A DNA stretch of 64,000 nucleotides, taken from contig CAJJDF010000016.1 of assembly GCA_905182785.1 (NCBI GenBank), forward strand, positions 35,274 through 99,273, read 5' to 3'. The position numbers and the translations under genes were made by a program. The stretch is from an uncultured Flavobacteriales bacterium. GTDB lineage: Bacteria; Bacteroidota; Bacteroidia; Flavobacteriales_D; CAJJDF01. This document shows, piece after piece, positions 460 to 56,568 of this stretch. The stretch's first letter is position 1; every line of letters begins with the position of its first letter. A model generated the notes under the pieces. It was given only the letters and a program-made list of their open reading frames with translations. It ran no database searches and had not been told where the DNA came from.

Positions 460-687
460 TTAAGAATTTATTTTCTTCTTCATCTCATCTTTCTCTTCAC
501 AAGTCAAGCATTCTTGTGCTTGTGTAATGTTACCAAAAAGACTTTTGAAAACATGAGAAAATTTCTTGTAGCCTCTACATTTTCCACACCTTGCGTTATG
601 AAATCTTAACCTTATCTTTTCTTTAAAACTAAGTTCGTTCCAATCGTTACGATCTATTAAGTGTGCAGCTTCTTTACAATCTATCAT
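460..687 (-). CDS. Small soluble zinc-binding anti-sigma factor (ZAS/zf-HC2-like)
   Basis: N-terminal C and HxxxCxxC (HNARCGKC); overlaps the stop of the ECF sigma; no TM helix. Confidence 0.75.
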   Translation of the reverse strand: MIDCKEAAHLIDRNDWNELSFKEKIRLRFHNARCGKCRGYKKFSHVFKSLFGNITQAQECLTCEEKDEMKKKINS

Positions 688-1244
688 TAGTCAAACCATT
701 TTTTATCCAAACATTCCTTTAGCTGAATCTTAGCTCGGTGGATGATTACCCAAAAATTGGACGAAGTTATTTCATACTCATTACATATTTCTTCAGAATC
801 TTTATTGTCAATGAATTTATCAATAAAAATTCCTCTTTGTTTCTCTGGCAACAATTCAATGCAACTCATTAATGCTCCTCGCAGTTCAGTGTTTTCTATA
901 GTTGCTTCTGTTTCATTCACTTCTCTGTTGGGAGTTGTAGCTTCTATCCAGTTATTTTCGTTTTCATCATTGGAAGTGTATTGAGAAATAGGTCTAGTTT
1001 TTCTGCTTTGTTGTTGCCTCCAGTGGTCTATTATTTTTCGCTTAAGAATAGAAAAAAGCCAAGTCTTAACGGTACTTTTTTGTTCAAATCTATCCCAAGC
1101 TTTCAATGCAGAAAAAAATGTATCTTGGACTAAATCCTTGGCCAAATCACGATCACCAACTCTATTTGCTGCAAAATTAAAGAGCATATCAGAGTAATCG
1201 TCTACCCAGGTATTTAAATCTATGTCGCTTTTTTTCTTGACCAA
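687..1244 (-). CDS. ECF-type RNA polymerase sigma-70 factor
   Basis: Region 2 DLVQDTF...KTWLFSILKRKIID and region 4 LPEKQR...IHRAK. Confidence 0.9.
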   Translation of the reverse strand: MVKKKSDIDLNTWVDDYSDMLFNFAANRVGDRDLAKDLVQDTFFSALKAWDRFEQKSTVKTWLFSILKRKIIDHWRQQQSRKTRPISQYTSNDENENNWIEATTPNREVNETEATIENTELRGALMSCIELLPEKQRGIFIDKFIDNKDSEEICNEYEITSSNFWVIIHRAKIQLKECLDKKWFD

Positions 1245-1247
1245 AAA

Positions 1248-2021
1248 TTATGTTTTTTTTGCTTTTTCCCAATACATGTCCATTTCCTCCAAACTCATTT
1301 CCGACAGTTCTTTTCCGTCTTTTTTCGATTCAGTCTCAAGATATTGAAATCTTTTAATGAATTTTTTGTTTGTTCTTTCTAGGGCATTTTCAGGGTTTAC
1401 TCCTATAAATCTAGCATAATTAATTAAGGAAAACAATACATCCCCAAATTCATCTTCTATCTTATCAGTCTTTCCGTCAATCTCTACTTTTAGCTCCTCA
1501 ATTTCTTCTATTACTTTCTCCCACACTTGATCTTTGTTATCCCAATCAAATCCTATTCCTCGAGCTTTCTCTTGAATTCTAGCTGCTTTCACCAAAGCAG
1601 GAAGTGACCTTGGAACTCCTTCCAAAACTGATTTTTTTCCTGATTTAAGTTTTATTTTTTCCCAATTTCTTTTTACTTCTTCTTCCGTCTCGGCAATGGT
1701 ATCTCCATAAATATGAGGATGTCTTTCTACCAATTTATCGCACACACTATTTAGTGCATCTGCAATATCAAACTCATTGGTTTCAGAAGCAATTTTTGCA
1801 TAAAAAACGAGGTGAAGCATCACATCTCCAATCTCTTCTTTTATATCTTGCATGTTTCCATCTAAGATGGCATCTGCCAATTCGTAAGTTTCCTCTATGG
1901 TAAGATGACGGAGCGATTCTATCGTTTGTTTTTTATCCCAAGGACATTCGGCACGAAGCTCATCCATGATAATTAATAACCGCTCGAATGCTTTGAGTTT
2001 ATTTTGCATTTTGCTTTTCAA
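1248..2021 (-). CDS. mazG: Nucleoside triphosphate pyrophosphohydrolase MazG
   Basis: CPWDKKQT, EETYE, EEIGD, RHPHIYG and EFGD motifs; tandem MazG domains. Confidence 0.95.
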   Translation of the reverse strand: MKSKMQNKLKAFERLLIIMDELRAECPWDKKQTIESLRHLTIEETYELADAILDGNMQDIKEEIGDVMLHLVFYAKIASETNEFDIADALNSVCDKLVERHPHIYGDTIAETEEEVKRNWEKIKLKSGKKSVLEGVPRSLPALVKAARIQEKARGIGFDWDNKDQVWEKVIEEIEELKVEIDGKTDKIEDEFGDVLFSLINYARFIGVNPENALERTNKKFIKRFQYLETESKKDGKELSEMSLEEMDMYWEKAKKT

Positions 2022-2583
2022 ATAATTCCATTAATTCCTCATCCGATAAATCAATTGTTTTTAATCTCGCCTTGTGGTTCTCAATAGATGAGTGATTTGG
2101 AAATTTTTCTATGATTTCTTTAATCGCTTTTTTTGCTTCTTCCTTACTGTCCATTTTATCGTAAAGAAAAGCCCTTAAATTCATTTCTTCAATGATATTT
2201 GTGTCAGTTGAATTTTCGTCAATAATTAGAGTGTTCAATCTTATTGCTTCGTAATCTTGATTAAGTCCCATTGCAGCTCTCACACCTTTTCTAATGGCTT
2301 CTCTTCTGTGTTCGCTAGTTGTAAATTTTGAAGCATGTTTTTGTGCAGATTCCAACATTTTTATTGAATAAGCTTTACTTAACTCAAGCGAATCTTCGTT
2401 CATCAATTTCTTTTCCAACTCTTCCATGTAATAATACAATTCCATGTCGACCAATGAATCAAGGTTAGTTAGCATAAATTGCTCCTCTGCGTTTACAGCT
2501 TCTTCTACTGGAGTTGAAGGTTCTGAGTTACAAGAAAAAAGCAAAACTGCTGAACTGATTGTGATTAAAATTATTTTTTTCAT
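1999..2583 (-). CDS. Lipoprotein with TPR-like helical C-terminus
   Basis: Lipobox LLFSC; helical repeat ending IIEKFPNH. Confidence 0.6.
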   Translation of the reverse strand: MKKIILITISSAVLLFSCNSEPSTPVEEAVNAEEQFMLTNLDSLVDMELYYYMEELEKKLMNEDSLELSKAYSIKMLESAQKHASKFTTSEHRREAIRKGVRAAMGLNQDYEAIRLNTLIIDENSTDTNIIEEMNLRAFLYDKMDSKEEAKKAIKEIIEKFPNHSSIENHKARLKTIDLSDEELMELFEKQNAK

Positions 2584-2657
2584 TTTATTTTTTATTTCTG
2601 TAAATATATAATTTTTGAGATTTTATTAATCTCTATTTTACTTCATTTTTATACGGG

Positions 2658-3758
2658 TCATTTTACCAATTCCCCTTGGTCAATTTCAAAGGAAAAACAT
2701 TCGTATTTTCTTTTTTTGAAAAACGCAGGCAATCTTTTTGTATTGGTATCCGTAATAAATACTTGACCATATACTCCTTCACATATTTGGTTCATTAAAT
2801 GAGCGATCCTGTGTTCATCTAGTTTGTCATAAATGTCATCCAGCAATAAGATAGGCTTTGATTCTGTTTTGGATTCAATGTGCTTAAATTGTGCTAATTT
2901 CAATGCGATCAAAAATGTTTTTTGTTGTCCTTGTGAACCAAATTTTTTCAAGGGTCTGTTTTCAATTTCAAAACTAAAATCATCTTTGTGAGTTCCTTTG
3001 GTTGTGTAACCAATGAATTTCTCTTTGTATAAACTGTCCTTCAATAAATCCTCAAAATTCTTTTCATCCAATTGCGATTTATAATTCAATTGAGCGGTTT
3101 CGTTTCCTCCAGAAATAGTGGAGTAAATTTCATCAAAAACTAATTTAAATTCGGATATAAATTTCGTTCTGTGTTCATAAATTTCTTCTCCAACAGCTAT
3201 TAATTGTTCATCCCAAATTTGCAAAGATAATTCATCAAATTTTGCTCCTTGTTGTAGGTTTTTTAAAAATGCATTTCTTTGTACCAGCACTTTATTATAT
3301 TTAATAAGTGTTTGCAGGTACTTTTTGTCGTATTGAGAAATTATTAAATCTATAAATTTCCTCCTCGTTTCACTTCCATCATAAATCAAATTAGTATCCA
3401 TAGGAGAAATAAGAACTGTATTGATTAATCCAATGTGTTCAGATAATTTCTCGTATTCTTTCTTCCCTTTTTTGAAAACTTTTTTCTTCCCTCTTTTAAC
3501 TCCACAGTATACATTCTCAGGTTTTTCTTCTCCTTTAAATTCTCCTTGAATCACAAAAAAGTCTTCTTCGTTTTTTATGTTTTGGGAATCTACTGAGTTA
3601 AAAAAACTCTTGCAGTTTGATAAATAATAAATACCATCTAATAGGTTGGTTTTTCCCATTCCATTTTTACCCAAAAAACAGTTGACAAACGGAGATACTT
3701 TTACCTCTATTTGGTCGTAGTTTTTGAAATTAAGAAGAGAAATTTTATTTAAAATCAC
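2658..3758 (-). CDS. recF: DNA replication/repair protein RecF
   Basis: Walker A GKNGMGKTN, SQGQQK signature, LLLDD Walker B. Confidence 0.95.
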   Translation of the reverse strand: MILNKISLLNFKNYDQIEVKVSPFVNCFLGKNGMGKTNLLDGIYYLSNCKSFFNSVDSQNIKNEEDFFVIQGEFKGEEKPENVYCGVKRGKKKVFKKGKKEYEKLSEHIGLINTVLISPMDTNLIYDGSETRRKFIDLIISQYDKKYLQTLIKYNKVLVQRNAFLKNLQQGAKFDELSLQIWDEQLIAVGEEIYEHRTKFISEFKLVFDEIYSTISGGNETAQLNYKSQLDEKNFEDLLKDSLYKEKFIGYTTKGTHKDDFSFEIENRPLKKFGSQGQQKTFLIALKLAQFKHIESKTESKPILLLDDIYDKLDEHRIAHLMNQICEGVYGQVFITDTNTKRLPAFFKKRKYECFSFEIDQGELVK

Positions 3759-3877
3759 AGATTTATAATTCGTTTTGGAATTGATTACTAAAATACTATT
3801 TTTTGAACAAATTAACAGAGAAACCGAGGGGGATTTTGTAATTTGTAATTCATAATATTTTAATTCTAAAAGCAGAG

Positions 3878-5452
3878 ATGAAAAGATTTAAATCCAGTGT
3901 GTTGATGTTACTAGTTTTTACAGGGATAGTTTCTTGTGTAAAATTCAAAAAAGCAGATTTAGTAATCCATAATGCACGAATTTATACAGTAAATGGAGAG
4001 TTTGAAGTGGCCCAAGCCATGGCAATTACAGATGGAATAATTGTGGCTGTAGGGAAGGAGCATGAGATTATGAATAAATACAGAGCTTCAGAAATTATAG
4101 ATGCCGAAACTCGTCCGATTTACCCTGGTTTTATTGATGCACATTGCCATTTTTTAGGTTCTGGGCTTAATGGGTTGGCAGTAAATTTGAGTGAAGCAAA
4201 ATCCATGGAGGAAATTGTAGAGTTACTTCAAAACGGAAAGAAGGATAAGTTGGATTGGTTAATAGGTTTTGGTTGGGACGAAAATAAATGGGATTCTCCA
4301 GAACTTAATAATAACTTATTAAACGAAAAATTCACTGACATTCCTGTTATGCTTTGGAGAGTGGACGGGCACAGTTTACTTGCTAATAATATGGCTTTGC
4401 TTAAAACAGAGTTTATGCCAGAGTTATTTAATGGAATCGTAAAAGAAGAAAATATTCATCATTTTACTAAAGCAATAAACTATACCAAACAACAAAAAAA
4501 GAATGCGTTACGAAATTCGGAATCAGCTTTTTTTTCACAAGGAATTACTACAGTTTCTGATGCTGGATTAACCAAAGAAGAGGTAGAATTAATTCAATCT
4601 ATGCAAGAGTCAGGAACGCTTGAAATGAGAATTTATGCCATGCTTTTTCCTTCTCCAGAATCCTTAGAAATGGATGCGATTTTTGAAGATAGACTAACGG
4701 TAAACTCTTATAAAGTTATGCTAGATGGGAGTGTGGGGTCTAAATCTGCTTGTTTTAAATCTCCCTACCGAGGAACTAATAATTATGGAAAATTATTAAT
4801 GTCAAGAGATAGTTTGGCACGAATTGCACTCCTTGCTTACAACAAAGGTTTTCAGTTAAATGTTCATGCTATTGGAGATTCGGCAGTGAAAGTAGCCTTG
4901 GTTGAAATGGGAAAAGTATTGAAAGAAACGAACGGAATGACCTGGCGAATAGAACACGCACAATCTGTGAGCGAAGAAGATGTAAAACTATTTGGTCAGT
5001 ACAATATTATTCCTTCGGTTCAGCCTACACACTTGGTAGATGACATGAAAGCAGGAATTGTAAAATCTGTAGATAAAGAATCGCTTAAAAACTCATACCG
5101 ATTAAAATCCTTGTTGGAACAAAATCAAACTATAGCTTTAGGAACAGATTTTCCTGTAGCGAGTAAAAATCCAGTAGAGACTTTTTACAATGCCATTGTG
5201 AGAAACCCAAGAATAGAATTTCCGATTGCTGACAATGAAAATTTGACAAGGGAAGAAGCTCTTAAAGGGATTACATTTTGGCCAGCTTTAGCCAATAAAG
5301 AATACGGAACCAAAGGAACTATTGAAGTTGGAAAATTTGCTGATTTCGTAATCCTGAATCGTGACATTATGAAGGTGCCAGAAGAGGAAATAAAAGACGC
5401 CAAGGTTGTTTATACTTTTGTGAATGGAGTAATTGTATTTGAGAATAGGTAG
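3878..5452 (+). CDS. Amidohydrolase_3 (YtcJ-like) metal-dependent hydrolase, lipoprotein
   Basis: PGFIDAHCH, HAIGD, RIEHAQ, GTDFP and GKFADF motifs; lipobox IVSC. Confidence 0.88.
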   Translation: MKRFKSSVLMLLVFTGIVSCVKFKKADLVIHNARIYTVNGEFEVAQAMAITDGIIVAVGKEHEIMNKYRASEIIDAETRPIYPGFIDAHCHFLGSGLNGLAVNLSEAKSMEEIVELLQNGKKDKLDWLIGFGWDENKWDSPELNNNLLNEKFTDIPVMLWRVDGHSLLANNMALLKTEFMPELFNGIVKEENIHHFTKAINYTKQQKKNALRNSESAFFSQGITTVSDAGLTKEEVELIQSMQESGTLEMRIYAMLFPSPESLEMDAIFEDRLTVNSYKVMLDGSVGSKSACFKSPYRGTNNYGKLLMSRDSLARIALLAYNKGFQLNVHAIGDSAVKVALVEMGKVLKETNGMTWRIEHAQSVSEEDVKLFGQYNIIPSVQPTHLVDDMKAGIVKSVDKESLKNSYRLKSLLEQNQTIALGTDFPVASKNPVETFYNAIVRNPRIEFPIADNENLTREEALKGITFWPALANKEYGTKGTIEVGKFADFVILNRDIMKVPEEEIKDAKVVYTFVNGVIVFENR

Positions 5453-5556
5453 ATTATTCTAAGAAAATAAGTGGAAAGTTGTTGTTGAGAAATGGAGAAC
5501 GGACAATGATGGTAGAGCAGATATATAAGTAGGAAAACTCCTCCTTGACTATTCAA

Positions 5557-5580
5557 GTCCGTCTGAACGGAGTCGAAGAC
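5557..5580 (+). repeat. REP-like hairpin (GTCT-GA...GA-AGAC)
   Basis: GTCCGTCTGAACGGAGTCGAAGAC; shares CTGA...TCGAAG core with copies at 14.8 and 59.9 kb. Confidence 0.55.
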
Positions 5581-5626
5581 TGTAACGCGAATCGATTTAT
5601 TTTTATAAAGATTTCGTATTCTTTGT

Positions 5627-5653
5627 GAGATCCTGAAATGAATTCAGGATGAC
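5627..5653 (-). repeat. REP-like palindrome GTCATCCTGAATTCATTTCAGGATCTC
   Basis: ATCCTGAA/TTCAGGAT stem with GTC end; inverted relative to the 5557 element. Confidence 0.6.
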
Positions 5654-5750
5654 TGGAATAATAACTCAATAATTTGGGTAACTAATTGATAAGTTTATTT
5701 GAATTTCATCCTAATGAATAACTGTTTTCGCAACATCAATTATCAATTAA

Positions 5751-6398
5751 CTAATTCAACTCCCTATACATCCCAATCCAATCGGGGTTTTGCATGTCTT
5801 TAAATAACTCAAATATTTTTGGGCCATGAAAATAATCTTGAATTTGATTAACTCCGTATTTCTGTAAATAAACTGTTTGTGCGTAACTAGGTCGCCATCT
5901 ATTTGCAGACCAACCTCTGTCCTCATCAGGAACTATACTTGCACCTTTACTATACCTAGGATGAATAGAATAACGTAATTTCCATATATCCCAAACAGGC
6001 AAGCAAATTGGTCGCATATCTTCCCAAAGTGTATCTACATAGGTCATTCCACCTCTTAGGATGGGAACGTCTAAAATATACCCGCAATCAATTCCTACTT
6101 CCTTAAAAAAATCTATTCTTTCTGGGTTTGCAGAATTTTTTAATAAGCCTTTGGCATACATTACAAAATTTTCTTCAGTAATGTTTGATTTACTTACAAT
6201 TTCTCCCGTTAAAGAATTTATTTTAAGCATGACAAAGGTAACCGTTCCTGAGCTAGCAGTTGGGTTTATATTAAATCCTAATTCGTATTTAACACTAAAA
6301 TTAGTAGTTTGTGAATTAATACATAACGGAAACATTCCTACACAGAAAATAAGTGTAGATAGATAAAGATTAGGTATAATTTTTTTGATCACAGTCAT
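5751..6398 (-). CDS. Hypothetical exported protein
   Basis: ATG at 6398 (MTVIKK...) avoids overlap with upstream gene; hydrophobic N-terminus; no recognised domain. Confidence 0.6.
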   Translation of the reverse strand: MTVIKKIIPNLYLSTLIFCVGMFPLCINSQTTNFSVKYELGFNINPTASSGTVTFVMLKINSLTGEIVSKSNITEENFVMYAKGLLKNSANPERIDFFKEVGIDCGYILDVPILRGGMTYVDTLWEDMRPICLPVWDIWKLRYSIHPRYSKGASIVPDEDRGWSANRWRPSYAQTVYLQKYGVNQIQDYFHGPKIFELFKDMQNPDWIGMYRELN

Positions 6399-6436
6399 TC
6401 GTTTTGCTCTATTAAAAACAAAAATTAAGCCAAAAT

Positions 6437-7945
6437 TTACAACCTTTGTAGGGGAGTACAAACTCCATCTACGCAACTGTAACACTTTAGTTTATCTTTA
6501 AAAATAGAAGATTTAAAAACTGATTTATTCAGTAACATTCTCACACACTCCTGAATTCCTTCAATGATAGAAGGATGAGGATGAATAAGTTCGGCAAGTT
6601 CTTCTATTCCTTTGTCCATTTTTATAAGTAAAGCAACCGCCTGAATCGCACTAGAAGCGTGTTCTCCAATGGCTCTCATTCCAAGAATTTTCATTTCCTT
6701 GTCGTTGGTCACAATAATCTTAAAAAAACCTTCTGTTTTTCTCATGGCAATTGCACGGGCAATGCACGAATAATCTAATTTTACAACCTTAATCGGTATG
6801 TTTTGTTCGCCACATTGTTTTTCATTCATTCCCACAGCAGCCACTTCTGGATCTAGGAACATAATGTTACTAATGTTGTCGTAAGAAATTCTTTCTTTTT
6901 CTTCTTCCGAAAACATCCTTTCTACTGCATGTCTTCCTTCCAATTCTCCAACATTTACCAAGGATATATGTCCTGATACATCACCTACAGAGTATATATT
7001 AGGAACATTGGTTTGTGTATCGTCATCTCCAATGTGTCTTCCTCTTTTACTCATCAAGACACCAGCATTCTCCATTCCAATGTTTTCAAAATTTGGAATT
7101 CTACCAATAGAAAGCATTGCTTTTTCTACTCTTATTACTTCTTTTCTTCCGTCTTCGTAAGCTAATTCATATTCAACTTCTCCGTCTATTTTTTCTAACC
7201 TCACTAGGCTAGCTTTGTTGTGAATTGTTACTCCATTTTTCTTTAGGTTATTTTCTACCAAAGAAGAAATGTCACGGTCTTCGAAAGGAAGAATGTGATT
7301 TGCTTTATCTATCAAATATACTTTTGTTTTACTAAAACTAGAGAACATAGTTGCGTATTCACAACCAATCACTCCAGCCCCTACAATTACTAAGCTTGTT
7401 GGAAAAGCCTCCATGTGATGAATTCCATCACTGGTCATAATTGTTTTCTCATCTACATCAATAGTAGGAATTTTTCTTGGCCTACTTCCTGTTGCAATAA
7501 CTATGTTTTCTGCCCAAATTACAGTCTCGGTTTCGTCCTTTCTCATGATTTCTACTTCGTGTTTAGAAATCATTTTGGCCGTACCTTTTTCATAAGTAAA
7601 TCTATCTTTTAGTTTGGTGTCCAACATTTTTACGTGAGAAGAATACTGAAACTTACGTTCAAAAACTGCATCTTTGATCGTTTTTTGTACGTCATCCCAA
7701 GTTACTTCCAGTTGCCTTCTTCCTGCAGAATACAGAGAGGTATTTATTGTGTCGACTTTTCTCGAAAGTTCCCACATTGTTTTTGAAGTTAATGCTCCGT
7801 TATAAATTCCGGCTCCACCCAATTTGTTTTTTTCTATCAAAACAACTGATTTCCCAAAATCTACGGCTCTCATTGCGGCAGCATAGCCTGCAGGCCCTCC
7901 TCCAATGATGCACACATCAAATTTTTTAGTCGAATTTTCTTCCAC
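6437..7945 (-). CDS. Pyridine nucleotide-disulfide oxidoreductase (Lpd/SthA-like flavoprotein) lacking the redox CxxxxC
   Basis: GGGPAG FAD motif, ATGSRP, GAGVIG, dimerisation domain with HPHPSIIE. Confidence 0.85.
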   Translation of the reverse strand: MEENSTKKFDVCIIGGGPAGYAAAMRAVDFGKSVVLIEKNKLGGAGIYNGALTSKTMWELSRKVDTINTSLYSAGRRQLEVTWDDVQKTIKDAVFERKFQYSSHVKMLDTKLKDRFTYEKGTAKMISKHEVEIMRKDETETVIWAENIVIATGSRPRKIPTIDVDEKTIMTSDGIHHMEAFPTSLVIVGAGVIGCEYATMFSSFSKTKVYLIDKANHILPFEDRDISSLVENNLKKNGVTIHNKASLVRLEKIDGEVEYELAYEDGRKEVIRVEKAMLSIGRIPNFENIGMENAGVLMSKRGRHIGDDDTQTNVPNIYSVGDVSGHISLVNVGELEGRHAVERMFSEEEKERISYDNISNIMFLDPEVAAVGMNEKQCGEQNIPIKVVKLDYSCIARAIAMRKTEGFFKIIVTNDKEMKILGMRAIGEHASSAIQAVALLIKMDKGIEELAELIHPHPSIIEGIQECVRMLLNKSVFKSSIFKDKLKCYSCVDGVCTPLQRL

Positions 7946-8089
7946 TCTTATTTTTTTAATTTTAACTCGTATTCCATTACTTATCTAGCACAAGGTATGA
8001 ATTTTTTCACTTTTGTGCTTCATTTTAATTAATTCTTAATCAATTAGTTTTTGTAGTTTTGTGGTACTCGTTTTATAAAATGAATACCT

Positions 8090-8620
8090 ATGATGGAATA
8101 CCAAAAAATACTAGATCTTCCCAAGCAAACTGTAGATAAGAACAAAAGCTTTATTACTAAATTAAAAAGGAAGAAAGCAAACTCAATTGATGATATGTTT
8201 CACGAAAAGCACGAAGAGGTTTTTGAAGACATAGATTGCTTAAAATGCGGAAACTGTTGTAAAACGACAAGTCCTATTTTTAGAGAAATAGACATAAAAA
8301 GAATCGCAAAGAAACAAAAAATGAAAGCGGTTGATTTTATCGAAACTTACCTCAGGATAGATACAGATGGAGATTACGTTTTACAAACTTCACCTTGTGC
8401 TTTTTTGGATCAGGAAGATAATAGCTGTACCATTTATGATTACAGACCATTGGCTTGTGAAGGTTACCCACACACCAACAGAAAAAACATGTATCAAATT
8501 CTAGATTTGACGCTAAAAAACACAGAAATTTGCCCAGCGGTAGCAAGAATTGTAACCGAATTAGAAAAAGCTACTAATATGGATAGGCCAAAGCCTAGAA
8601 CTCAAGATGGAAGGGGTTAG
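8090..8620 (+). CDS. YkgJ family cysteine-cluster (Fe-S/Zn) protein
   Basis: CxxCxxCC, CAFL, CTIYDYRPLACEGYP. Confidence 0.85.
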   Translation: MMEYQKILDLPKQTVDKNKSFITKLKRKKANSIDDMFHEKHEEVFEDIDCLKCGNCCKTTSPIFREIDIKRIAKKQKMKAVDFIETYLRIDTDGDYVLQTSPCAFLDQEDNSCTIYDYRPLACEGYPHTNRKNMYQILDLTLKNTEICPAVARIVTELEKATNMDRPKPRTQDGRG

Positions 8621-8645
8621 GTTTAATCCCTATATATTTTATTAT

Positions 8646-8702
8646 TCTTAACGTTTTGGCTAAACTGCGTTTTAATGCAGTTTAGGTTTTGTTGTGTGTA
8701 GT
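8646..8702 (-). mobile_element. attC-like recombination hairpin
   Basis: Minus strand, just after the stop codon: ACACAAC-aaaac-CTAAACTGC-loop-GCAGTTTAG-ccaaaac-GTTAAGA. Confidence 0.6.
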
Positions 8703-8704
8703 TT

Positions 8705-9064
8705 TTAATTAGTTATTGTGAAATTAATTCTCACAGTTTCAACATTGGAACATCCAGTGGACTTACCTCCAGAGCAAGTTTCAATTTCAACAAAGTCCGT
8801 TCCAGTATAGTTTTGAAGAGGCTCATATTTATAAACTACACTCCAATTTGTGCTTGAGTCTCTAATCAATTCACTTTTTTGAAAATGTTGCGCTTGAGTC
8901 TGTATAGTTGCTCCTTCTTCATCGCCTGAAATCATTAAATCAATTTCATAGTCATCAGAATTATTGATAGTTACGTTTACCTCTCTATCACCATTTTCTT
9001 TGTTACAATTCGTAAGTGATAAGATACAAGTTGCTAAAAATAATAATTTCAGAATCTTCTTCAT
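8705..9064 (-). CDS. Hypothetical lipoprotein (Ig-like/beta-rich), putative cassette cargo
   Basis: Lipobox LTNC; YEPLQNYTGTDFVEI resembles Ig/cadherin-like strands. Confidence 0.7.
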   Translation of the reverse strand: MKKILKLLFLATCILSLTNCNKENGDREVNVTINNSDDYEIDLMISGDEEGATIQTQAQHFQKSELIRDSSTNWSVVYKYEPLQNYTGTDFVEIETCSGGKSTGCSNVETVRINFTITN

Positions 9065-9348
9065 ATGTTTTGATTTTAGATTTTAAGTTTGACAATGCAT
9101 TTTCTTAATCGATATTACACACAACAACCGAATATAGTTAACTGTTAAAAGTAATTGACTACTAATTAGTTGTTTTAGTTGAAACGAATGTAATTACTTT
9201 TTTTAATATCAGCAAAAAAAAAGTAGGGTGTTTTAATTAAAAGTTACTGATTGTTAGCAGGAAATAGGGCAAACTTTTTTATTGCTAATTTCGATTAAAA
9301 TAAAATGCAACTTTTTGGTTATTAAGTTCATCTTACAATTATTAAACT

Positions 9349-9420
9349 TTAGTTTATAAAACCACCTACAACTATTCCAATTAATACTGCTAATAAATTT
9401 CTTAAAATTGAATTCCTAAT
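9349..9420 (-). pseudogene. 5' relic of a membrane-protein gene
   Basis: Reads (I)RNSILRNLLAVLIGIVVGGFIN* with no usable start; looks like an N-terminal TM helix cut short. Confidence 0.4.
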
Positions 9421-9457
9421 ATTTGTTCTTTCTTCAAGATTAATAAAACTTTTGTTT

Positions 9458-10510
9458 TTAACAACAAGAAGCTGCATCCCCATTTTCTCTAGCGGTAAAA
9501 GGAATATTTCCTCCACAACCTTCAAAAATTCCGAAATGTGTATCCCAAGTTCCGTGAAAATCAAAGTGTTTTTTGAACCTTGTTTCGTGCAACATATTGT
9601 AAGTGTTTCCACAAACCGACATTACTTTTCCTTTAGGAAAATAGTGGTGCTCGTCCAATAAAAACCCTAATTCTTCTTCAGGGATTCCTCCTTTGTAAGC
9701 CACTGCTTGTCCGTAATCTTCACAATCCGATTCTAATCCCTCTATTTTCCACAAACGGTAAGTTACTGAGTAAAATTTGATGTCTCCCACCAATTCTTCT
9801 ACAGCTTCGTTTTCTATTGTAATGGGTTTGTCTTCAATTGCTCTAGGATCTGTAAATCCTGCTTTTTTTGCTGTTCTCAAGAAATCATTCCAGTACAAAG
9901 CTCCGCTTAAACATTCGCCCCACAATACTTTGTCTTCTTGTAAATGTTGTGGAATTCTACAATCGCTATACACATCAGAGAAATACATTTCTCCACCTGG
10001 TTTAAGTAGTTCATAAGCATCTTGTAATACTTTTAGTTTATCGGTAGCTAAGTTTATCACACAGTTAGAAATAATAACGTCAAACGAACCTTTTTCAAGA
10101 TTCAATTCATCCAATTTCTCTATGTTTCCTTTTATGAATTCTACGTTAGATTTTGCATAACCAAATTGTTTTCTGTGGTATTCAATTCCATCATTTGCAA
10201 CTTTTAGTTGTTCGTCTGTCATGTCTACCCCAATCACGTATCCATTTTCACCTACAAGTTTCCCTGCAATGTAACAATCACGTCCACTTCCAGAACCTAA
10301 ATCTAGGATTCTTAATCCTTTTACATCCGAAGGGATTGTAAGTCCACACCCGTAATATTTTGCATTTACTTCATCCGAGACTAAGTTCAAAGCCTCCATA
10401 ATGTGTTTGGGTGGTTTGCTCAAAGTGCAACAAGCATTTGTTTTTAAATCTTCTGATTTTTGCAATTCTGTTCCGTAATAATCTTGTACTTCTTGGTGTA
10501 TGTTTTTCAT
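9458..10510 (-). CDS. arsM: Arsenite methyltransferase (ArsM/AS3MT-like)
   Basis: TNACC, YYGCG, LDLGSGSGRDC, SNCVINL, GECLSGAL, CEDYGQ; C-terminal CC. Confidence 0.8.
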   Translation of the reverse strand: MKNIHQEVQDYYGTELQKSEDLKTNACCTLSKPPKHIMEALNLVSDEVNAKYYGCGLTIPSDVKGLRILDLGSGSGRDCYIAGKLVGENGYVIGVDMTDEQLKVANDGIEYHRKQFGYAKSNVEFIKGNIEKLDELNLEKGSFDVIISNCVINLATDKLKVLQDAYELLKPGGEMYFSDVYSDCRIPQHLQEDKVLWGECLSGALYWNDFLRTAKKAGFTDPRAIEDKPITIENEAVEELVGDIKFYSVTYRLWKIEGLESDCEDYGQAVAYKGGIPEEELGFLLDEHHYFPKGKVMSVCGNTYNMLHETRFKKHFDFHGTWDTHFGIFEGCGGNIPFTARENGDAASCC

Positions 10511-12476: not shown

Positions 12477-13211
12477 CTACTGGCTTATAAAGTTATAAAT
12501 AATGTAACCCGTTTGCGAATTACTTCCTTCTAAATCTGAAGAAACTCGAGTAGTTTTTTTGGCAAATTTTAATGCTGTATTCAAAATACATTCACTCTTA
12601 ACAGTAGATTTAGAGGGAATAACACGAGCATTTTTTACTCTCCCAATTTTGTCTACGTTAATCTCTATGTACACTTTTCCGCCTCCTTTACAGATGTAGG
12701 CAGGAGTTTTGGTGGAACATTCTCTGCCAGGAACGTTACATTCTTTAGTGACTTTTCCGGCAAAAGCATTTTCTTTTTTGCTTTCTGTTTTTTCTTTTTT
12801 ATCGTCCTTTTTGGTTGGTTTTGTTTCAAATTTTGAGAGATCAAAACCTTCAATTCCTTTCTCTCTTAGTTCTTCTACCGATTTTTTGTTTTCTGCCTCA
12901 ACAGCTTCCAGTTGTTTTTGCTCTATCTCACTTTCACTGTAGTCTTCGTAACTCTGGTTTCGGATATCCTGAATGTCTTTCATCAAATCTTTAAGTGTTT
13001 GATTGTTCTCAGGTGTTTGAATTTCTTCCTCGGGATTTATTATTTTCTCAATCTCTTCGGGATCTTTAAAATCCAATTCTAGAATAGCAGTATTTGGAAT
13101 AACGTATACTTTCGTTTCTAAAGTAGAAATATTAAAATACAGAAGAGCCGCAACATGAATTACAAGAGTAATCAAGATAGCAATAAGACTTCCTTTTCCG
13201 TATCTATTCAT
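12477..13211 (-). CDS. TonB-like energy transducer
   Basis: N-terminal TM with His, charged linker, C-terminal PAYICKGGGKVYIEINVDKIGRV fold. Confidence 0.7.
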   Translation of the reverse strand: MNRYGKGSLIAILITLVIHVAALLYFNISTLETKVYVIPNTAILELDFKDPEEIEKIINPEEEIQTPENNQTLKDLMKDIQDIRNQSYEDYSESEIEQKQLEAVEAENKKSVEELREKGIEGFDLSKFETKPTKKDDKKEKTESKKENAFAGKVTKECNVPGRECSTKTPAYICKGGGKVYIEINVDKIGRVKNARVIPSKSTVKSECILNTALKFAKKTTRVSSDLEGSNSQTGYIIYNFISQ

Positions 13212-29301: not shown

Positions 29302-30048
29302 ATGGAAAATTTTGTAACATACAATAGTTTAATAGGAGTAGTACTTTTGGGAGGATTTTTAGTCTTTCTCTTAAAGGAAAAAATCACCCAGTATTTAAAA
29401 TACATACTGGCTTTTAGTGGAGCATTTATGCTTTCCATAGCTGTTCTTCACATCATCCCAGAGGTTTATGTAAACAATGGGTTTTCTATTGGAATATTTG
29501 TATTGTTTGGTTTCTTAATTCAATTAATTCTCGAATATTTTTCACAAGGAATAGAACACGGACATATTCATGTACACCATAATAAGTCTATATTTTATTT
29601 AGCTCCTATTCTTATTAGTTTGTGTTTTCATGCCTTCCTTGAAGGTCTTCCATTGGCAAGAGACTTTTCATTGGAGATTCATCAATCACATGGTCATAGT
29701 CACGAACATGGTAACTCGTTTTTAATTAGTATATTATTACACAAGTTTCCAATTGGAATTGCTTTGATGACCTTGTTCTTGAAAGCAAAACTAAGAATGG
29801 GTTTAGCTTTTTTATGGCTTATAGTATTTGCTTTAATGGCTCCATTAGGTAAATTAGTAGGAACATTTTTTCAAGACTTCTTTAACGATTTCAATTCAAT
29901 TTTCGAATATATTTTGGCAATCGTATTAGGAATGTTTCTTCACATCTCAACTACTATTTTATTCGAATCAGATGAAAGTCACAAATTCAATTTAATGAAA
30001 TTGATAATTATTATGACAGGAGGTTTAGTAGCTTATTTAGTGGTCTAA
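29302..30048 (+). CDS. ZIP-family metal transporter
   Basis: His-rich loops HGHIHVHH and HGHSHEH, HAFLEG, HKFP. Confidence 0.88.
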   Translation: MENFVTYNSLIGVVLLGGFLVFLLKEKITQYLKYILAFSGAFMLSIAVLHIIPEVYVNNGFSIGIFVLFGFLIQLILEYFSQGIEHGHIHVHHNKSIFYLAPILISLCFHAFLEGLPLARDFSLEIHQSHGHSHEHGNSFLISILLHKFPIGIALMTLFLKAKLRMGLAFLWLIVFALMAPLGKLVGTFFQDFFNDFNSIFEYILAIVLGMFLHISTTILFESDESHKFNLMKLIIIMTGGLVAYLVV

Positions 30049-32657: not shown

Positions 32658-33554
32658 ATGGATACTTTTCAATCACAAATAGAAGAATTTTCGAATTACA
32701 TTCAAAATGAAAGAAGATTATCCCCGCATACTTTAACAGCTTACCAAACTGATTTAAGACAATTTCAATATTTTTTGGAGGAAACACTTAGGTTGAAGTC
32801 CTTTACAGAAGGAACCTACAATGAAATAAGAATGTGGATCATTCATCTTAAAGAAAATGAAATTTCTAATAGGTCTATCAATAGGAAGATATCAACATTA
32901 AAATCTTTATTCAAATATTTTATAACAAAACAGAAAGTTAAAGTAAATCCAATGCTTAAAATAATAGCGCCAAAACAATCGAAAAAACTTCCTGTTTATT
33001 TTGATCAAAAACTATTAAACAACTTATTCAATTCTGAAGTTTTTACAAATGACTTTATGGGAATAAGAGATATTTTAATAATGGAATTGCTTTATGGAAC
33101 TGGAATGCGCCTTGCTGAATTGATAAATATTAAACAAACAGACATAGATAATCTTGAAATAAAAGTATTAGGAAAAGGGAATAAGGAAAGAATAATTCCG
33201 ATAACAAAAAATATAGCGTCATTTATATCCTTATATAATGAAAAAAGAAAGGAAGAATTTACAACAAAAAATAACCATTATTTGTTATTGACAAACAAGG
33301 GAGATAAACTATATGAAAAATTTGTATATCGAGTAGTAAATCATTATCTTGGATTAGTAACAAATGAAAAGAAAAGAAGTCCACATACCATGAGGCATTC
33401 ATTTGCTACTAACATGTTGAATAACGGAGCTCAGCTTCATACGATAAAAGAAATATTAGGTCACGCTAACTTGTCGGCAACACAAGTTTATACGCACAAC
33501 ACAATTGAGAGACTAAGAGATGCTTATAAAAAGTTTCACCCTAAAGAAAATTAA
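32658..33554 (+). CDS. xerC: Tyrosine recombinase XerC-like
   Basis: TGMRLAE, GKGNKER, HTMRHSFAT, LGHANLSATQVY; conserved position before hpf. Confidence 0.85.
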   Translation: MDTFQSQIEEFSNYIQNERRLSPHTLTAYQTDLRQFQYFLEETLRLKSFTEGTYNEIRMWIIHLKENEISNRSINRKISTLKSLFKYFITKQKVKVNPMLKIIAPKQSKKLPVYFDQKLLNNLFNSEVFTNDFMGIRDILIMELLYGTGMRLAELINIKQTDIDNLEIKVLGKGNKERIIPITKNIASFISLYNEKRKEEFTTKNNHYLLLTNKGDKLYEKFVYRVVNHYLGLVTNEKKRSPHTMRHSFATNMLNNGAQLHTIKEILGHANLSATQVYTHNTIERLRDAYKKFHPKEN

Positions 33555-56352: not shown

Positions 56353-56568
56353 TAAATTGAAGTACTACTGTTCTTGAGGTCAGTTGAATGTAAATTTACA
56401 ACTTGAAACAAAAAACCGAGTGCAAACCGTTATTTTTCATTTGTTTTAAAGGTTTATAAAGAAACTAGATAGACTCGTGAAAAATTCTTACCCTTTGATG
56501 AGATTTAAATAATAATTAGATAAAAAAGAATTAAATTAGTATCAATTATATTAAAAAAAAACAGAAAA

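Follow-up and report, generated by a model that had tools for sequence, protein, structure and literature searches.

The stretch of DNA analysed here, called the window below, comprises 64,000 nucleotides (nt) from an uncultured Flavobacteriales bacterium (contig CAJJDF010000016.1 of assembly GCA_905182785.1). On its minus strand, positions 9124 to 8652 hold a 473-nt unit made up of a small lipoprotein-like gene and a hairpin that resembles the attC recombination site of integron gene cassettes. The unit lies between two convergent genes, a genus-conserved housekeeping gene for a protein with a CxxCxxCC zinc/iron-chelating domain (8090–8620, plus strand), which is outside the element, and a gene for a SAM (S-adenosylmethionine)-dependent methyltransferase (9458–10510, minus strand). 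Integrons are textbook bacterial gene-capture machines and are defined in practice by an integrase, IntI, with a special inserted domain. We consider it highly probable that the unit is a mobile cassette of an integron-like system native to the Flavobacteriales, most likely run by a Xer/XerA-like recombinase.

Anatomy of the cassette

Read on the minus strand, the cassette begins with G↓TTGTGTGTAAT (9125–9114, reading GTTGTGTGTAAT), where the arrow here and below marks the crossover. Its single open reading frame (ORF) of 119 amino acids (aa; 9064–8705) begins MKKILKLLFLATCILSLTNC and predicts a lipoprotein-like product with a signal peptide followed by a cysteine, an orphan protein for which no Pfam family was found. 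Two bases after the stop codon (TAA, 8707–8705) follows ACTACACACAAC (8702–8691), the extended R'' box of a 52-nt attC-like recombination site (8646–8697; G000:C16:43919-43970, G000 being the window's own genome), which scores 78.5 bits (E 1e-16) with the covariance model R1 introduced below. The site has the layout ACAC-AAC / AAAAC / CTAAACTGC / ATTAAAAC / GCAGTTTAG / CCAAAAC / GTT-AAGA, in which the stem arms CTAAACTGC (8685–8677) and GCAGTTTAG (8668–8660) enclose the conserved 8-nt loop ATTAAAAC, and CCAAAAC leads into the R' end GTTAAGA (8652–8646). We place the presumed crossover between G8652 and T8651. The core of attC sites has the consensus RYYYAAC for R'' and GTTRRRY for R'; the boxes in the window, ACACAAC and GTTAAGA, each deviate from it at one position, and the consensus of the site family described below is CATAAC...GTTA.

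The 12-mer up to AAC matches the reverse complement of 9125–9114 at 11 of 12 positions, with an A opposite a C at position 11, so that the R'' box is complementary to the cassette's own 5' end. Folded as single-stranded DNA, the hairpin reaches -7.5 kcal/mol (z = -3.8), a value that none of 200 shuffles equalled. An earlier note on this DNA, made from the letters alone, had described these motifs; a read-out of the sequence found every one of them, their orientation and the 11/12 complementarity exactly where they had been placed on the minus strand.

A family of covarying hairpin sites

When the DNA of relatives was searched with window 8000–9700, recurrence was limited to about 45–70 nt around the hairpin, which turned up at numerous unrelated positions in several genomes. 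An alignment could be made of thirteen copies from six genomes, and their conservation ends sharply at AAC and at GTT; the covariance model R1 was built from this alignment. The earlier note had asked whether similar hairpins exist elsewhere, and they do: R1 matched 7 of the 13 genomes of the genus, including five sites in the window's own genome, and at E <= 1e-4 it matched 44 of 151 genomes (~29%), representing 28 of 70 genera of the order, where six of the 44 positive genomes had supplied training copies. Inverted AAC...GTT cores around an imperfect palindrome, the architecture of attC-type sites, are present throughout, and the layout AAC-5nt-stem-loop-stem-7nt-GTT is kept in the 13 aligned copies as well as in the array sites described below.

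In divergent copies the loop ATTAAAAC is retained and the stem is altered on both sides, for example to CTAAGCCA/TGGCTTAG or GTAAAAAAGC/GCTTTTTAC. Among 36 sites from eight array loci, 91% of the cells pair and two-sided stem changes occupy 38 cells, compared with 9.9 +/- 2.4 in shuffles (0 of 500 reach 38), in an alignment that was fitted to R1 and includes four reverse-strand partial rows, which counts against these figures. Compensatory changes affect six of the nine stem pairs, and one-sided changes of the G-U type are limited to three cells; this near lack of G-U pairs fits a DNA structure that is maintained on both strands. The stems of some relatives carry a bulged A (L027, L028, L026), and every copy that we read keeps a 2-nt asymmetry between its spacers, as 5/7 or 3/5. 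This constant asymmetry might replace the extrahelical bases of classical attC sites. No Rfam family matches the site, and viral_contigs has no exact 20-mer of its core.

Two broader scans of the own genome were set aside. A generic search for AAC-hairpin-GTT returned 174 matches versus 56–73 in shuffles and proved unspecific, most of its matches being ordinary terminators, and a search for a complementary 9-mer plus hairpin returned 18 versus 0–6, of which only the cases on contigs C5 and C16 were convincing.

The same cassette in other genomic contexts

Relatives of the lipoprotein encoded in metagenome contigs are 90, 82, 82 and 71% identical to it, and at the nucleotide level the entire cassette recurs in foreign surroundings. 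Contig L070 matches window 9125–8649 with 94% identity; unrelated DNA lies upstream, and downstream follows G↓TTATAGCAC... with another ORF. In L071 and L072, which match window 9125–8638 with 88% identity, an attC-like site stands directly upstream (L071:1110–1164), and G↓TTATGAGTAAT... with another ORF stands downstream. A fourth contig, L073, is 76% identical over part of the span, with a different upstream region and a decayed site downstream. Both flanks of the cassettes in L070, L071 and L072 are unrelated to those of the window; a divergent recombinase remnant is located about 150 nt away from the cassette in L070, and the cassettes in L071 and L072 lie inside an array. Homology to these three contigs begins at the G of GTTGTGTG (9125), and the match to L070 ends three bases past the G of R' (8649). 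The homology thus extends barely beyond the G↓TT in the R' box, which is what the integron model predicts and which bears out the cassette ends and the crossover proposed in the earlier note.

The gene itself is absent from all 12 congeners, and among 401 genomes of the order only the own genome carries it, apart from two weak matches. Each of four metagenome runs, all from different studies, showed a summed contig depth of 664–6549 over 8640–8713, compared with about 2–50 alongside, and loose contig ends at 8649/8650 and at 8693, indicating that many different contigs share only the AAC...GTT core. One metagenome contig (X19 record 21) holds 8690–9125 between sequences that are unlike the window on both sides. 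The X19 variant of the cassette lacks 7 nt at 9072, in the 5' untranslated part, and shows nine other differences; alleles of the cassette circulate in nature. The only joint listed across positions of this region, from 9727 to 9882, lies inside the methyltransferase gene and comes from one low-depth contig. Contig breaks near 9121–9150 are best explained by the repeated half-site motif described below and not by presence or absence of the cassette.

Arrays and cassette-specific complementarity

In arrays, sites of one orientation each stand behind an unrelated ORF; among the loci of this kind, L060 has nine sites, L062 six, L059 five and L017 (G006:C26) four. We compared the 12-mer that begins with GTT at each site with the reverse-complemented 12-mer that closes with AAC at the next site. 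Nine or more contiguous matches were found in 11 of 28 adjacent pairs, compared with 2 of 1378 non-adjacent ones. Four of the first 13 copies have an 11/12 complement that starts with GTT one ORF upstream, one more has a 10/12 complement, and contig C5 of the own genome provides a further clean case. The A opposite C at position 11 recurs in G008C2, G032C20, own C5, L059, L060, L065 and L062, with boxes read by eye.

Some array cassettes carry RNA-like elements. Motifs of the Rfam families DUF805 (70.5 bits, above threshold) and DUF805b (35.0 bits, just under 35.6) precede the ORFs of two cassettes in the G006 array (L017:2392–2461 and 5284–5317) and lie inside the cassettes; therefore, cis-regulatory RNAs travel within them. 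Five different attC-like sites of G004 and G006 are each followed by a structured non-coding repeat of roughly 230 nt, which starts precisely at G↓TTCCGACCAATAACCC (L017:3716–3945 and 5725–5960; L028 after 9117 and 10111; L021 after 2837). It contains a 13-bp inverted repeat, TTCCGACCAATAA / TTATTGGTCGGAA, and has no listed Rfam match; the repeat may represent either a cassette without a coding gene or an element for which attC-like sites are targets. In addition, L028:2474–2654 (minus strand) gave a sub-threshold match to the Bacteroidales-1 RNA (46.4 bits, gathering score 60).

Xer-like recombinases beside the arrays

Homologues from one family of tyrosine recombinases were detected in 5 of 21 site-bearing loci searched (L060, L062, L065, L021, L028), the matches in L021 and L028 being fragments. 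A co-oriented array beside a recombinase with a proximal site is present in L060, L062, L065, L027 and L070, compared with one cassette and a degenerate proximal site in the window itself. In G132:C14 (L060) and G124:C5 (L062) the recombinase gene is co-oriented with the array, and its stop codon is followed by a hairpin, G↓TT and then cassette 1, whose R'' box matches the cassette's own start after the recombinase at 10 of 12 positions in L060 and 11 of 12 in L062. The recombinase gene of G071:C9 (L065) is divergent from the cassettes, as is the 275-aa gene of G004:C8 (L027), where the R'' box of a single cassette agrees with the cassette's own 5' end, GTTGGGCAACAT. In L070 a recombinase remnant adjoins the lipoprotein cassette itself. 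A divergent tyrosine recombinase and a cassette system specific to the lineage, as proposed in the earlier note, thus find their counterpart in relatives, which have recombinase genes beside the arrays.

These recombinases are not canonical integron integrases. The array-adjacent recombinase aligns in one stretch to the XerA-like chain 4a8e (E 7e-35), whereas its alignment to Vibrio IntI4 (2a3v) falls into two stretches (13–177 with 13–177, 205–274 with 248–317). The intervening part has 27 residues, compared with 70 in IntI, and the IntI-specific insertion, the I2 region, is therefore absent from the recombinase. It scores 197 bits with the integron integrase model TIGR02249, compared with a cut-off of 265, and every TIGR02249 match is split in two, leaving out model positions ~180–240. 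No canonical IntI above this cut-off was present in the own genome (0/1), in genomes of the taxonomic family (0/15) or in array-bearing genomes (0/5). In three of these five array-bearing genomes (G132, G124 and G071) the top partial TIGR02249 matches are the array-adjacent genes. The recombinase encoded on contig C51 of the own genome passes the NCBIfam XerA model ('site-specific tyrosine recombinase/integron integrase') with 230.5 bits at a cut-off of 220. A full-length recombinase of the C51 type on G003:C2 has no site motifs within 18 kb.

Two further genes deserve mention. A 123-aa ORF without a Pfam family is divergent from the long (383–387 aa) recombinase in G000 and G003 (L013, own C51, 1265–1636, plus; L053, 11097–11468, plus) and may be a partner gene of the recombinase. 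The window also encodes a 298-aa Xer-type tyrosine recombinase (32658–33554, plus strand) with partial TIGR02249 matches and ~31–33% identity to the C51 recombinase. Since similar matches of ~300 aa occur in 12 of 12 congeners, it is probably a housekeeping XerC/D.

An 810-bp insert with a degenerate half-site

The cassette is part of a larger block of 810 bp (8652–9461) without counterpart in the congeners G004 and G002. TTAAC (GTTAA on the minus strand) bounds the block at 8648–8652 and 9458–9462; the stop codon of the methyltransferase gene overlaps the left GTTAA, and the right-hand boundary coincides with the G↓TT of the attC-like site. The two convergent genes on either side are separated by 4 nt in G004 and G002, with the minus-strand junction ...TGTTG TTAAGAAC.... 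The empty site predicted by the earlier note, ...TTCGGTTG↓TTAAGAAT..., was not found; what these two genomes lack is the 810-bp block instead.

Immediately before the G↓TT at the start of the cassette lies a degenerate attI-like half-site, TTAAC-A-GTTAACTATAT-TCGGTT (9126–9148, minus strand), and a non-coding relic of about 310 nt (9149–9461, minus strand) separates it from the stop of the methyltransferase gene within the insert. No recombinase remnant was detectable by tblastn in window 9126–9461. An 87-aa ORF without a Pfam family (9349–9612, minus strand) uses a different frame across the 3' end of the methyltransferase gene and continues into the relic; it probably does not represent a gene.

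The half-site motif recurs in the own genome, and its full form is a palindrome, GGATATATAGTTAAC-W-GTTAACTATATTCC-ATT-GTT. This palindrome follows the stop codon of a 383-aa recombinase on the 2-kb contig C51, the sole full-length member of the family in this genome, and it also follows recombinase remnants on contigs C14 and C18, both of which have a co-oriented R1 site 3–4.6 kb downstream. The 3' end of the recombinase thus travels with the palindromic site on all three contigs, and on contig C5 a site of this kind stands at the head of an array of two cassettes. Because a degenerate copy of this recombinase-proximal repeat lies just upstream of the window cassette, we read the cassette as the remnant of a platform: the 810-bp block would be a decayed mini-platform with one surviving cassette, which fits better than a single off-target insertion. 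Since the only full-length recombinase is encoded elsewhere, on C51, any present movement of the cassette would be in trans.

Further recombinase-proximal palindromes with a conserved left flank of ~110 nt and no recombinase gene occur in the own genome on C38 (~65790), C39 (~26650) and C67 (~19030 and ~28130) and look like scars of lost platforms. A third repeat of ~75 nt in the own genome has two direct copies of GTTAACTATAT and ends in ACGGTT-GTT (minus strand; C8:~29540–29600, C34:~12920–12980, C46:~56440–56500, C26:~2620–2672). On C34 and C46 a stretch of about 60 nt to its left is conserved, and the repeat is possibly the end of a larger element with the same crossover motif.

Counter-evidence and alternative explanations

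Several observations weigh against a recombining cassette at 9124–8652. By itself, the 11/12 inverted repeat could be due to chance: at a spacing of 300–600 nt, 153 such pairs occur in the window, compared with 131–142 in three shuffles, and two of them have GTT...AAC ends, compared with 0–3. We take the cassette in the window to be real because the family has independent copies, because these form arrays and because the same cassette occurs in other contexts. Extrahelical bases in the L box of attC sites mark the recombining strand, and the window site has a perfect 9-bp stem without any; with its 5- and 7-nt spacers confirmed as well, it is as atypical as the earlier note had said. Eight of the first 13 copies have no upstream complement, and 17 of the 28 adjacent array pairs stay below nine contiguous matches, most of them more than 1.5 kb apart or involving weak sites. 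At 13 other loci, relatives of the recombinase (36–43% identity) have no R1 site nearby, and in this search of genome_contigs the query's own locus alone had one; R1 is sequence-specific, so that other site types may be present. Some genomes of the genus have recombinase homologues but no R1 match. No excision circle or contig joined across the cassette was present in the four metagenome runs. A precise empty site for the 473-nt cassette was not found either, the congeners being without 810 bp and not 473, and the corresponding search for the G008:C2 cassette led only to a variable hotspot. Finally, a plus-strand scan classes the hairpin and the GTTTTGTT that follows it as an intrinsic terminator of the convergent gene, with a G+C-rich stem and a T run downstream of that gene.

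Among the alternatives, the one that survives best, and that we nevertheless regard as unlikely, is a cassette system recombined by the housekeeping XerC and XerD proteins, in the manner of dif-like modules or integrative mobile elements exploiting Xer (IMEX), with the neighbouring recombinases being passengers or belonging to other integrative elements. The array-adjacent enzymes are Xer-like in sequence and length, a housekeeping-type Xer gene is present in the window, many solitary sites lack a nearby recombinase, and the genomes that have the recombinase family without R1 sites point in the same direction. However, the recombinase holds a fixed position relative to the first cassette at at least five loci of four genomes, with the site and G↓TT either directly after its stop codon (L060, L062) or in the divergent spacer (L027, L065, L070), and in the own genome its 3' end is linked to the palindromic site on C51, C14 and C18. 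Moreover, the hairpin, the AAC/GTT ends and the asymmetric spacers are unlike the dif site, which is a duplex with an 11-6-11 layout.

We give very little credence to a repetitive extragenic palindromic (REP)-like or miniature inverted-repeat transposable element (MITE)-like repeat spread by a transposase, for example one of the HUH or IS200/IS605 type that acts on hairpins (IS, insertion sequence). The site is short, hairpin-forming and highly repeated in metagenomes, it occurs as dispersed single copies in several genomes, and a 5-bp TTAAC direct repeat flanks the 810-bp insert. This repeat is, however, what a crossover at G↓TTAA would leave, and the moving unit is an ORF plus its site and not the hairpin alone. 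The terminal 12-mers vary among copies, each being complementary to its own partner alone, so that the conserved terminal repeats of MITEs and insertion sequences are absent; the genes beside the arrays are tyrosine recombinases, and no transposase was noticed among neighbours that were not systematically screened.

A mere bidirectional intrinsic terminator between convergent genes, with the 11/12 repeat due to chance, is extremely improbable: the plus-strand consensus scan calls the stem plus GTTTTGTTGT, such inverted repeats are as common in shuffles and the generic hairpin scan found mostly ordinary terminators, but this would leave unexplained the near-identical 44–52-nt copies in 28 of 70 genera, the conserved loop, the covarying stems with almost no G-U pairs, the arrays, the copy-specific complementarity and the recurrence of the same cassette with exact G↓TT boundaries elsewhere. 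The attC-like site may well terminate transcription as a side effect.

Discussion

The unit in the window works like an integron cassette with an attC site and is outside the classical family defined by IntI, because the IntI-specific feature was looked for and is absent. As in IntI-dependent cassettes, for instance those of the Vibrio array, a promoter-poor ORF is followed by an imperfect palindrome of the form R''(..AAC)-spacer-L''-loop-L'-spacer-R'(GTT..), the crossover falls at G↓TT, and R'' complements the cassette's own 5' end. The co-oriented arrays of unrelated, mostly orphan genes with a tyrosine recombinase at the head of the array are likewise those of integrons, and the homogeneity of the sites within the lineage resembles sedentary chromosomal integrons. 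Unlike integron attC sites, the Flavobacteriales site is only 52 nt long, has a conserved loop, an R box that extends to 12 bp and a recurrent A-C mismatch, and in the window its stem has no extrahelical base. Furthermore, in contrast to integrons, several of the Flavobacteriales platforms have their recombinase co-oriented upstream, with the first site after its stop codon, and others have it divergent, and the recombinase is without the insertion that characterizes IntI.

With clusters of attC sites lacking integrases (CALINs) and attG insertions the window cassette shares the lack of an adjacent integrase and the insertion at a GTT in ordinary chromosomal DNA. It differs from them in the degenerate platform-type site that precedes it, in the 810-bp insert and in the enzyme family. 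According to the available part of one review, off-target insertion and loss of intI are among the origins of integrase-less cassette clusters (PMC8618304), and the accessible text of another study describes integrase-catalysed insertion of cassettes into genomes outside att sites (10.1101/2022.09.11.507474). The array-adjacent recombinase aligns end to end with XerA-like proteins (chain 4a8e), whose relatives serve in chromosome dimer resolution as Xer/XerA; it is, however, an extra and patchy copy beside the housekeeping Xer and is tied to hairpin sites and arrays and not to a single dif.

By analogy with integrons, we propose the following course of events. The enzyme would most likely be a small (about 275–385 aa) Xer/XerA-like tyrosine recombinase without the I2 region; it would attach to the site in folded or cruciform form, and strand exchange would take place between the G and the TT. 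The ORF and its site would leave as a circle, in which R'' would pair with the first 11–12 bases of the cassette itself, and the circle could re-insert at the recombinase-proximal site, at the site of another cassette or at a stray GTT. The choice of strand may depend on the unvarying 2-nt difference between the spacers, on the A-C mismatch or on the A that bulges from the stem in some copies. In the window's own genome, the cassette would be the last survivor of a small platform at the GTTAA that overlaps the methyltransferase stop codon.

Integrons of Bacteroidota are listed in reviews (PMC8618304, PMC9668308). In its available part, the IntegronFinder 2.0 account states that earlier only In0 elements, integrases without cassettes, were found in Bacteroidetes and gives one complete integron, in Salinibacter ruber; that part does not mention integrons or cassette clusters of Flavobacteriales (PMC9024848). 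Integrons in this phylum are thus reported, but only barely in the accessible portions of these three sources, and as far as these portions go, Bacteroidota have almost no integrons by the IntI definition. Literature searches gave no published description of such arrays in Flavobacteriales, where supplements could list matches. Acquisition of the I2 helix is presented, in the parts of two papers available to us, as the key innovation behind single-strand (attC) recombination (PMC7790495, PMC4792948).

The site family shows all behavioural hallmarks of integron cassettes and yet stands beside recombinases without the I2 domain, and its interest rests mainly on this type of recombinase and on the breadth of the family. 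We suggest, tentatively and with some doubt, that Flavobacteriales may carry a widespread, unreported gene-capture system in which a Xer-like enzyme that never acquired I2 acts on 52-nt hairpins, in the form of folded single strands, and recombines them at G↓TT. If the recombinase is indeed the cassette enzyme, the system would be a natural test of whether I2 is needed for recombination of hairpin sites, and if the enzyme acts without I2, this region would not be required for attC-type recombination. The assignment of the enzyme, if true, would also mean that cassette surveys based on IntI miss whole lineages, and it would make a large stock of orphan accessory genes from abundant polar and marine bacteria available for study. 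Moreover, if recombination proceeds without I2, marine Bacteroidota would hold a large reservoir of mobile cassettes that standard integron searches, because they require this domain, fail to detect.

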